Below are positions 7,055 to 8,602 of a DNA stretch of 64,000 bases, in pieces. Under the pieces are notes generated by a model. The model made no database searches, was not told the DNA's origin, and saw nothing but the letters and a program-made list of their open reading frames with translations. A program made the translations under genes and the position numbers. Every line of letters starts with the position of its first letter. Within the stretch, counting starts at the first letter, position 1. Source of the DNA: a virus (taxonomy: Duplodnaviria; Heunggongvirae; Uroviricota; Caudoviricetes); the IMG/VR virus record IMGVR_UViG_2541047712_000002. One strand, written 5' to 3'.

Positions 7055-7831
7055 AAATACAATGATAAGTATTTACTTACTTATCTTTTGTGTATAAGAT
7101 GACTTTGTTTTCGTTGAGACGCGACTGTTTGAACTTAAATACAAGTGCAAACGAAGAAGTCTATCTGGCAGTAGCCTAATAAGCCAAACACCAGCGAGGT
7201 CAGTTTCCAGCCTCGTTACCGAAATGGGACACACTGAGCGAGTGTGATTGCAGAACGCAGGAGGGAACATTCATGTTCCCTCCGATGAAGTAACAGAATG
7301 GGCGGTTGGTATATTTTCAACTCCATATGACTCCCGGATTCTTAGCCACTGACCGCCCATCCTGTTACGTCATTTGTTCAATTATGTCGTTTATACTGGG
7401 TTAAAAAGCGGCGACGTAGCCCGGCTGGTATGGTTAGCCAGCACACAACGTTGAGGCCATTACATTTTTATCAATTCTAAGGTTCTATTCACAGAGATAC
7501 CGGCGAGCGTTGATATGTAACATGTTGGGCAAACATTCAATCGGAGTAGTGGCCTCAACGTTGTGAAGACAGGATTGTTGTGTAGGTTTAACCACTGTTG
7601 CCATTGGTGCCTGTTTTCACAACAAATGATTCCATACATCACATTGTATAAATTACAAAGTAGGTGCTGTCCTCAGAAACATCATCTACTTAAAGATTTT
7701 GCCTTCTACTATTGAGCGAAGTCGAAAGCGTCTGGCACTAACGAAAAGTGCAAGTAGCGGTGCGTTTCCTGGCAGAAACTAAACCGTCGCGATTGGCACT
7801 GTTGAGTAATAAATACTGGCAGTGCTGAATT

Positions 7832-7906
7832 GATGGTGTAGCTCAGCGGTAGAGCAGTTGGCTGTTAACCAACTGGTCGGTGGTTCGAATCCACCCACCA
7901 TCGCCA
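7832..7906 (+). tRNA. tRNA-Asn (anticodon GTT)
   Basis: acceptor gatggtg/caccatc, D-arm gctc..gagc, anticodon stem gttgg/ccaac with loop ctGTTaa, T-arm ggtgg-ttcgaat-ccacc, encoded CCA. Confidence 0.85.
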
Positions 7907-7911
7907 ATTTA

Positions 7912-7998
7912 GGGGAGTTAGTCCGTAGAGGTAGCGGTGTAGACTGTAAATCTACTGTCATGGCGACTCGGGTGGTTCGACTCCATCACTCCCCACCA
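7912..7998 (+). tRNA. tRNA-Tyr (anticodon GTA), long variable arm
   Basis: acceptor ggggagt/actcccc, anticodon stem gtaga/tctac with loop ctGTAaa, long variable arm, T-loop ttcgact, CCA. Confidence 0.8.
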
Positions 7999-8002
7999 AA
8001 TT

Positions 8003-8134
8003 GCCGGTTTAGCTCAGCGGGAGAGCGCGAGAGCCAAAGCATCGTTTCTACTTCGGTAGACAGCCTTGCTGGTCAAATGACAACGATTCGATGTTAGGCC
8101 AGAGGTCAGCGGTTCGAGTCCGTTAACCGGCACC
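8003..8134 (+). tRNA. atypical 132-nt tRNA-like gene (anticodon unassigned)
   Basis: acceptor gccggtt/aaccggc, D-arm gctc-agcggga-gagc, T-arm with ttcgagt loop and CCA are canonical, but about 55 extra nt including a tctac-UUCG-gtaga tetraloop hairpin sit where the anticodon/variable region should be. Confidence 0.4.
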
Positions 8135-8359
8135 AATACAACGATAAGATCATTACGGTTAATCGTCGTTCATGTGCACAATGACTGGTCGAAAGGTAGT
8201 GATCTTACCGTTGTGGTGGATTCGCAGACTGATGCGATAGCTTTCTTGGATGTTAGGGAAATGCGGCCGCAAATCTTCCCTTTCGCGAGCGGTGATCGTC
8301 CGTAGTCCTAATTGGCTGCACCGTATGCCGGAGATTCAGTACCGGCCACCACAACGGCC

Positions 8360-8446
8360 GGAGAGTAGGGAGCATGGTGCTCAAGCGGTCTTGAAAACCG
8401 TCCCATTGCGCAAGCGATGATGGTTCGATTCCATTACTCTCCGCCA
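8360..8446 (+). tRNA. tRNA-Ser (anticodon TGA), type II
   Basis: acceptor ggagagt/actctcc, anticodon stem gcggt/accgt with loop ctTGAaa, long variable arm, T-loop ttcgatt, CCA. Confidence 0.75.
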
Positions 8447-8602
8447 GACACAGCGTTGAGCGGTTTGGCCTTTTAATCACCCAGATTAAGACTCCGCTAA
8501 CATAAACCAGACCGCTCAACGCTGTGATAGACAATTACGGCAGACGTTCTTAACCATTGCTTCTTAGCATCGTAGCAACACTTTTTTTCAGCGCAAATAA
8601 TT

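Follow-up and report, generated by a model that had tools for sequence, protein, structure and literature searches.

IMG/VR record IMGVR_UViG_2541047712_000002 is a 64,000-nucleotide (nt) stretch of viral DNA, referred to here at its full length as the window, in which a leader without open reading frames (ORFs) is followed by several tRNAs. An earlier note had pointed to four long inverted repeats bracketing these tRNAs. We lean modestly toward a broader explanation, in which the repeats would be helices of a non-coding RNA locus of ~1.5 kb (about 7107-8624), and the first product of the locus would be a structured RNA of ~520 nt (7107 to ~7623) that derives from transfer-messenger RNA (tmRNA, the product of ssrA) and has no tRNA-like domain. 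At positions 7000-8700 the window matches E. coli IncFIB phage-plasmids with 100% identity and Escherichia phages CMS-2020a and Cyrano with 98%, and the leader plus tRNA-Asn share 74% identity with Salmonella phage SSU5, so by sequence the window is an E. coli SSU5/pHCM2-like phage-plasmid. The upstream part of the locus holds the following features.

7072..7100, plus strand: putative sigma-70 promoter read from the sequence, with -35 TTTACT (7072-77), a 17-nt spacer and -10 TAAGAT (7095-7100)
7107..7131, plus strand: 5' arm GUUUUCGUUGAGACGCGACUGUUUG, reading as a diverged antisense copy of host tmRNA (E. coli ssrA nt 81-105)
7137..7146, plus strand: A-rich resume context, with A7143 at -4 (equivalent to tmRNA A86) and C7142 at -5 (equivalent to U85)
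7147..7182, plus strand: tag template, GCA AAC GAA GAA GTC TAT CTG GCA GTA GCC TAA TAA, encoding ANEEVYLAVA and two stops
7193..7229, plus strand: hairpin H1 (7193-7199/7211-7217) with an H-type pseudoknot, in which loop UUCCA (7205-09) pairs with UGGGA (7225-29)
7230..7246, plus strand: hairpin H2, CACAC/GUGUG

The tag template lies just upstream of the flagged interval and in register with the E. coli tag ANDENYALAA. It had been missed by the earlier note, whose suggestion of small stable RNAs like those of phage tRNA regions was nevertheless close in spirit. As in the resume context of tmRNA, the A at -4 and the GCA codon are present, and both are invariant in 24 lineages, while position -5 is U or C across them. 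A86 is the main frame determinant of tmRNA, and the change U85C is tolerated (PMC2481249). All 18 tag variants are 10 codons long and end in LAVA, VAA, MAA, AAA or QAA. They include ANEDTYLAVA in SSU5 and also in pHCM2 (with a synonymous ACG>ACA change), ANDNQYLAVA in Klebsiella, ANDTQYLAVA in pCP102, ANDNVFLAVA in a Felix O1-like phage, and ANDDLMMVAA in P1. Among single-nucleotide codon differences, 53.7% are synonymous in the tmRNA frame versus 6.5% and 24% in the other two frames, and variability is greatest at third codon positions. The tag thus appears to evolve like coding sequence, although this picture is biased to some degree by our search patterns. No conserved start codon or Shine-Dalgarno sequence was found at the tag across lineages, and what remains is a short, start-less frame with a hydrophobic/alanine C terminus, a stop and coding constraint, as expected of a tmRNA tag. 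Rfam tmRNA models hit the tag in every lineage tested, always below threshold: against a gathering score of 47, the window reached 14.5 bits and an N4-like phage 33.7 bits at best.

Two conventional protein genes were considered here and rejected. An in-frame ATG at 7099 would open a 26-codon ORF running to 7182, but the ATG is unique to this lineage, SSU5 and Felix O1-like phages have in-frame stops upstream, and the ORF looks coincidental. A protein in the +2 frame (MQT...WQ and a stop) has ATG, GTG, CTG, AGC or CGC at its start position, and its substitutions are non-conservative.

The structures that follow the template are also conserved. Hairpin H1 and its pseudoknot carry compensatory changes both within the SSU5 group and across phage families, and hairpin H2 covaries as well. 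In most other lineages the H2 loop forms a second pseudoknot with downstream sequence (for example GCCCAC/GUGGGC, GGUGGGAG/CUCCCGCC or UCCCCG/CGGGGA); the SSU5-like lineage, which includes the window, has at most a 3-bp GCG/CGC match at this place. When pairing in these hairpins and pseudoknots was tested across families against controls with slid partners, 82% of cells were paired versus 38-54%, 15 pairs showed changes on both sides, and the covariation score was 0.40 versus 0.11-0.22. RNAalifold proposed a distal alternative, in which AUGGGA would pair with an AUUCCAU motif. We rejected it because that pairing shows only one-sided changes, the local pseudoknot has compensatory ones, and the motif recurs as DNA.

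This tag module is widespread. The leader has homologues in 773 plasmid records, among them pHCM2 (S. Typhi), pMT1 (Y. pestis) and plasmids of Klebsiella, Enterobacter and Citrobacter. BLAST with the compact tag unit returned 740 phage records, and the element is unannotated among the matches listed. Every record that we fetched carries the tag, including members of the Ackermannviridae, N4-like Schitoviridae, Ounavirinae, P1 and Roufvirus, and a pattern scan of viral contigs gave at least 120 loci in SSU5-like, Felix O1-like and ~46-kb phages. In total the tag was confirmed in 13 annotated phage or plasmid records, ~120 viral contigs and 12 genome contigs, spread over P1, N4-like, Vi1-like and Felix O1-like phages, ~46-kb siphophages and SSU5-like plasmids. 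When one genome per species was scanned with a looser pattern, the tags ANDDYKLAAA, ANDDLMLQAA and ANDDLMLAAA were added; the true hits of that scan fell in Enterobacterales only and the remainder was plain noise. We found no description of the tag or arm element in the literature searched. The position of the putative promoter and its TA...T -10 element are kept in SSU5, Klebsiella, pCP102 and one Felix O1-like phage, where it reads TTGACA-17-TAAGAT, and transcription would start at about G7107.

To place the 5' arm, we compared it with E. coli K-12 ssrA and ran RNAduplex with its first 32 nt against the whole of ssrA. The arm reads as a diverged antisense copy of host ssrA nt ~64-105, of which nt 81-105 cover the A-rich linker, U85/A86, the -1 triplet, the resume codon and codons 1-5. 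All lineages open with (A)GUUUUCG, the reverse complement of GACGAAAAC(U) in ssrA codons 3-5 or 3-6, and continue a few bases on with GCGA(C/U)U, the reverse complement of AGUCGC from A86 to C91. In the window these blocks read GUUUUCGU and GCGACU, and the P1 counterpart of the predicted RNA 5' end is GGUUUUCG. Complementarity continues through GCCGCAA and UAAAAA of pseudoknot 1 (PK1) and the linker in the arms of the ~46-kb phages, P1 and the N4-like phages, and other lineages align to antisense ssrA better than the window arm does. An upstream PK1 is absent from the phage RNA, the corresponding region being antisense to host PK1 and linker. With ssrA the window arm forms two 10-bp blocks at -26.3 kcal/mol, and 4 of 400 dinucleotide shuffles did as well. 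In all 24 lineages the best arm-ssrA duplex falls on the same ssrA site (nt ~64-105) at -21 to -34.5 kcal/mol, versus only -10.6 to -17.7 kcal/mol for the arm against the phage's own template. By shuffle z score this pairing is significant for the N4-like (-5.9), ~46-kb (-3.8) and P1 (-3.0) arms and for the window (-2.95). A covariance model of the phage modules (R1) matched ssrA on its minus strand at the arm site (E = 0.014) and on its plus strand at the tag (E = 0.056). Phage templates depart from the host sequence at -3 to -1 and in codons 3-5, exactly where the arm would otherwise pair with itself. The remaining leader and the junction module described below were also compared with ssrA on either strand, and no homology rose above shuffles.

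Two further observations concern the arm. In loci L130, L129 and L136 (Kuttervirus, Taipeivirus and Erwinia phage Bue1) it is partly duplicated (GTTTTCGTTCTCGT...), giving two tandem blocks against ssrA codons 3-5. Elsewhere in the window, 52757-52811 gives a weak match to R1 (12.4 bits, E = 0.026) limited to the 5' arm and A-rich part, which is probably due to chance.

An antisense stretch followed by a sense stretch resembles a fold-back copy, and the element could in principle be a relic without function, left from an ancient event in which host ssrA was captured as an inverted duplication. We consider this very improbable, as the element is kept in at least 6 unrelated phage groups and 740 records, with the frame intact, the -4 A invariant and compensatory changes present.

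The element is not a tmRNA, because it has no canonical tRNA-like domain: neither ARAGORN nor Rfam detected one (acceptor stem, G3:U70, T arm, CCA) in the window or in 128 related loci. In one Felix O1-like phage ARAGORN does recognize the tag as that of a tmRNA, and this sole call was rejected as a full or permuted tmRNA since what serves as its 5' domain is part of a genuine tRNA-Lys. We also looked for a tRNA-like domain at the leader 3' end or one pairing with the 5' GUUUUCG; the candidate AACGAAAAG at 7741-49 is disrupted in both SSU5 and Klebsiella, and conservation is lacking at the 3' ends.

The ARAGORN call itself deserves a description. In Citrobacter phage HP1 (locus L001, 1867-2615) and in locus L106, the "permuted tmRNA" carries the tag ANDNVFLAVA and is pieced together from the genuine tag module, an orphan fragment of a T arm and a portion of tRNA-Lys; calls of this type are a likely origin of false tmRNA annotations among Felix O1-like phages. 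At L001 1921-2000, an orphan T arm and 3' acceptor strand with GCCA are followed 4 nt on by the matching 5' acceptor strand and D-arm-like sequence, which looks like a circularly permuted tRNA fragment.

On balance, we favor the explanation that this phage RNA, with its ssrA-antisense arm and its own tmRNA-type template, would pair with host tmRNA and either block or re-template tagging. From its 5' end the RNA would present the arm, then the -4 A, GCA, a ten-codon ssrA-like degron and stops, then the hairpin with pseudoknot, the second hairpin, and finally the long helices. Pairing of the arm may mask U85/A86 and the resume codon of host tmRNA and would tether the phage template to an alanine-charged, SmpB-bound molecule. 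Rescued ribosomes would then be either barred from host tagging or led to read the phage tag. The more specific version, in which the RNA acts as a parasitic tmRNA template in many enterobacterial phages and phage-plasmids, docking on charged tmRNA-SmpB, hiding the host resume codon and presenting its own resume signal and tag, is one that we put forward only tentatively. If true, rescued host ribosomes would add a phage-specified tag, amounting to a trans-acting re-programming of trans-translation.

Several points weigh against pairing and re-templating. We know of no mechanism by which a ribosome takes its template in trans, and with phage tags (...LAVA, ...VAA) that resemble ordinary degrons it is unclear what a tag swap would gain. 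Arm-ssrA pairing is not significant in the pCP102 lineage (z = -0.25), and its energy is moderate in the window (z = -2.95) and in the Felix O1-like phages (z = -2.1). The lineages are related, which makes their shared arm site non-independent evidence, and the tag statistics carry an ascertainment bias, since the search patterns fixed several codons. Lastly, the window promoter matches consensus at 8 of 12 positions, which is below threshold, and a consensus scan does not call it.

Alternatively, the RNA may be a pure antisense inhibitor that only masks the host template, the tag-like template being a decoy (for SmpB or S1, for example) or vestigial. In favor of this stand the complementarity between the arm and ssrA 64-105 and the published loss of tmRNA activity when the surroundings of the resume codon are base-paired (PMC2481249). 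A partial tmRNA has also been cast in such a role, as the fragment in phage DS6A, a tRNA-like domain only, was proposed to inhibit tmRNA by titrating SmpB (PMC4131195). We regard this alternative as doubtful, because a decoy needs no fixed set of 10 codons, no stop, no hydrophobic ...AA or ...VA end and no synonymous-biased change.

The remainder of the locus, in which the flagged repeats lie, is arranged as follows.

7260..7283, plus strand: stem A; 6 of 10 pairs with double changes, 95% of cells paired
7285..7373, plus strand: stem B, 22-nt arms with two mismatches and a 45-nt loop; 4 double-change pairs, many G:U pairs, 93.9% paired
7382..7442, plus strand: two helices, UUAUGUC/GACGUAG (7382-88/7413-19) and GCUGG/CCAGC (7424-28/7438-42); 100% paired, one compensatory change
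7444..7565, plus strand: stem C, 20-nt arms (16 bp perfect) and an 82-nt loop; 8 double-change pairs, 86.5% paired
7560..7623, plus strand: stem-loop GUUGUGAAGACAGG/CCUGUUUUCACAAC, its 5' arm overlapping the 3' arm of stem C
7625..7644, plus strand: recurring motif AATGATTCCATACATC, invariant in homologous leaders
7832-7906, plus strand: tRNA-Asn(GUU), called by ARAGORN and Rfam
7912-7998, plus strand: tRNA-Tyr(GUA), called by ARAGORN and Rfam
8003..8135, plus strand: tRNA-Thr-derived RNA, with acceptor, D and T arms as in P1 tRNA-Thr and a ~77-nt structured insert in place of the anticodon arm
8133..8219, plus strand: long hairpin with 24-nt arms, its 3' arm overlapping the closing stem of the next module
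8208..8357, plus strand: junction module, tRNA-like, with closing stem 8208-19/8346-57, D-like hairpin 8222-37, a variable insert and T-like hairpin 8327-46
8360..8446, plus strand: tRNA-Ser(UGA)
8449..8526, plus strand: stem D, 20-nt arms (16 bp perfect), after tRNA-Ser
8603..8624, plus strand: GC-rich hairpin and T-run, the likely terminator of the unit and its sole terminator-like hairpin

The four inverted repeats are present largely as reported. Those at 7260-7269/7274-7283 (10 bp, 4-nt loop) and 8449-8464/8511-8526 (16 bp) are perfect, and the latter lengthens to 20 nt at 95% identity. The repeat at 7290-7306/7352-7368, described as 17 perfect base pairs, contains an A7297:C7361 mismatch (16/17) and lengthens to 22 nt at 91% (7285-7306/7352-7373). 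The remaining perfect 16-bp repeat lies at 7444-7459/7550-7565, one base off the coordinates first given, and lengthens to 20 nt at 95% (7444-7463/7546-7565). Further long helices of the same unit had been missed, namely 8133-8156/8196-8219, the perfect 12-bp 8208-8219/8346-8357, and 7560-7573/7610-7623. These repeats are far beyond chance. When 7060-8620 was shuffled 300 times with dinucleotide composition kept and searched for perfect inverted repeats with loops of up to 110 nt, the 3 observed repeats of at least 10 bp compared with a mean of 0.12 per shuffle, and the 2 of at least 14 bp (both 16 bp) with a mean of 0.003. The plus strand of the leader (7055-7831) has no ORF above 50 amino acids. 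We also considered a dispersed palindromic repeat (of the REP or MITE type) or an integron attC-like site and ruled both out, as the arm motifs are not scattered and G:U pairs mark a plus-strand RNA. At zero mismatches, the arm motif CACA[AG]CGTTGAG is confined to the RNA locus within the window, occurring solely at 7444, 7554, 8449 and 8515, and the other long inverted repeats of the window are unrelated.

Conservation of pairing was assessed in an alignment of 21 divergent homologous leaders, using a structure that we specified ourselves and controls in which pairing partners were slid. Paired cells made up 89.7% versus 35-44% in the controls, pairs with both sides changed numbered 24 versus 4-8, and the covariation score was 0.172 versus 0.05-0.08. 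RNAalifold, run separately on the same leaders, found stems A and B plus several shorter helices. Three of the four flagged repeats covary, so the pairing is conserved in homologues and the stems are RNA helices rather than terminators; the frequent G:U pairs assign the structure to the plus-strand RNA. The earlier view that simple terminators are unlikely here is thus borne out by the compensatory changes and strand-specific G:U pairs of stems A, B and C, and a T-run follows none of stems A to D. Among 14 distinct homologues, stem D varies in its loop but not in its arms, which leaves covariation uninformative for this repeat. Stem C is missing from the pCP102-type lineage, and stems A to C would, in the explanation that we favor, be lineage-specific long helices of the first RNA. 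The stem-loop at 7560-7623 has 49.6% of its cells paired, on an alignment too poor for covariation.

Downstream, the tRNAs are interspersed with two RNAs that the standard tools do not recognize. The stretch at 8003-8135 does not form a complete tRNA cloverleaf and is called by neither ARAGORN nor Rfam. The junction module at 8208-8357 likewise received no tRNA call from ARAGORN or Rfam. The T-like loop of the module is non-canonical and 9-10 nt long, measuring 10 nt in the window. Its two loops kiss, ACUGAU pairing with AUUCAGU in a 5-6-bp contact, and across 23 sequences it is 93.1% paired versus 26-54% with slid partners, with 9 double-change pairs. A hammerhead reading of its CUGAUG was rejected since covariation puts CUGAUG in a hairpin loop. 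Searches with nhmmer placed the junction module downstream of the tag module in E. coli SSU5-like elements, in P1 and in many ~46-kb phages; the loci of SSU5, pHCM2, pMT1, pCP102 and the Felix O1-like phages keep the tag module but lack the junction module. It resembles the gammaproteobacterial small RNA STnc100 in its closing stem UGGUG/CACCA, an AAU, a hairpin, a variable part and a hairpin CCGGG...CCCGG. The STnc100 model (RF02076) did not match the window module up to E = 10, and a third variant of the module, in P1, scored 37.8 bits, below the gathering score of 47.

One may therefore ask whether the tmRNA is split, with the junction module processed, CCA-tailed, charged and serving as the acceptor piece for the template RNA. 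The acceptor-like stem, the D-like and T-like hairpins and the loop-loop contact all covary, and the two modules co-occur in ~46-kb phages, P1 and E. coli SSU5-like elements. However, the loci listed above keep the tag module without the junction module, which itself has no G3:U70 or encoded CCA and carries the non-canonical T loop; its closing stem continues into paired flanks (12 bp in the window), and ARAGORN and Rfam detect no tRNA-like domain. A split tmRNA is therefore quite improbable in our view.

Long hairpins with CACAAC...GUUGUG bases stand at the borders of modules and tRNAs and, stem D included, most likely insulate folds or guide processing. In P1 (L132 3117-3250), such a hairpin follows tRNA-Thr and holds a tRNA T-arm remnant in its loop. 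After it comes a short second variant of the junction module, which is also found in Klebsiella (L007 2420-2475).

The motif AATGATTCCATACATC at 7625 separates the first RNA from the tRNAs. Exact copies lie at 16332, 16352 (minus strand) and 22383 (minus strand), with a 1-mismatch copy at 6614, and 16332-16364 forms a palindrome. Its 13-mer core AATGATTCCATAC (extended consensus AATGATTCCATACATCTCAT) occurs four times exactly in the window, with one near-copy. The motif at 7625 is probably a DNA-level regulatory or promoter site dividing the tmRNA-like RNA from the tRNAs, and the 13-mer is likely to be either a site bound by a phage regulator or an element of a phage promoter. Farther along the window, 25927-26345 (minus strand) gives a full-length match to the Rfam cspA thermoregulator (187.6 bits; gathering score, 78), which implies that the phage-plasmid carries a predicted cold-shock-protein gene with its 5' untranslated region.

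The flagged region could also be an ordinary leader and spacers of a tRNA operon, with hairpins acting only as RNase III/E/P processing or stabilizing elements for tRNA maturation. Helices of 20-24 bp do flank the tRNAs and modules, CACAAC/GUUGUG bases recur at the borders, and the P1 hairpin loop retains a tRNA remnant. The region is more than a tRNA leader, however, because the tag module is also kept where no tRNA follows (Enterobacter pCP102, pMT1 and many ~46-kb phage contigs). The processing explanation is likewise made improbable by the coding-like constraint on the tag module, by the covariation of its pseudoknots and by the probable regulatory site that parts it from the tRNAs. In pMT1 (L006, Y. 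pestis, ~1540-2010), an insertion of caf1R/caf1M (F1 capsule) ends the tmRNA-like locus after ~510 nt, and no tRNA follows.

tmRNA and SmpB form the universal bacterial ribosome-rescue system, and several phages depend on it; to our knowledge, no phage factor acting on the tmRNA template has been described. If the favored explanation holds, phages may tamper with ribosome rescue by a candidate route to block or redirect tagging and proteolysis, and the element would be a naturally occurring case of a tmRNA template that functions, or interferes, in trans. It is unannotated in classic phages (P1, Felix O1-like, N4-like and Vi1-like) and sits in clinically common phage-plasmids such as pHCM2, pMT1 and the IncFIB phage-plasmids of Klebsiella and E. 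coli. Regardless of whether the mechanism is right, the locus defines two RNA families with covariation support that Rfam lacks, and it explains the recurrent ARAGORN "permuted tmRNA" artifact.

Structured non-coding RNAs beside phage tRNAs are familiar from T4 species 1 and 2, GOLLD and ROOL, which are likewise co-located and co-transcribed with phage tRNAs. Rfam gave no GOLLD or ROOL hits in the window, and we know of none among these RNAs that carries a tmRNA-type tag template. With tmRNA itself (RF00023, RF01849-51, RF04321), the phage RNA shares an A-rich stretch, the -4 A, the GCA resume codon, a 10-codon AN[DE]x x[YF]... tag, one or more stops, and a downstream hairpin; of the downstream pseudoknots, one is supported in this lineage and across families, and the second in most other lineages. 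Unlike tmRNA, it lacks the acceptor/T-arm domain, G3:U70, CCA and PK1, and it has only ~40-57 nt before the resume codon, antisense to host ssrA. Phage-borne tmRNA derivatives are known, since the Bxz1 group and Bacillus phage G encode complete tmRNAs and DS6A the tRNA-like domain only (PMC4131195). The same exhaustive 2014 survey of 543 phage genomes found ssrA only in mycobacteriophages, Bacillus phage G and DS6A, and nothing in enterobacterial phages (PMC4131195). Those derivatives keep the tRNA-like domain, whereas the element here keeps only the template and pseudoknot part. No precedent for an antisense arm fused to a replacement tmRNA template was found in the literature searched. The closest likeness in this respect may be to trans-acting antisense or sponge RNAs, which also have a conserved 5' seed complementary to a specific host RNA; here, in contrast, tmRNA itself would be targeted, and the antisense arm comes joined to a substitute template.

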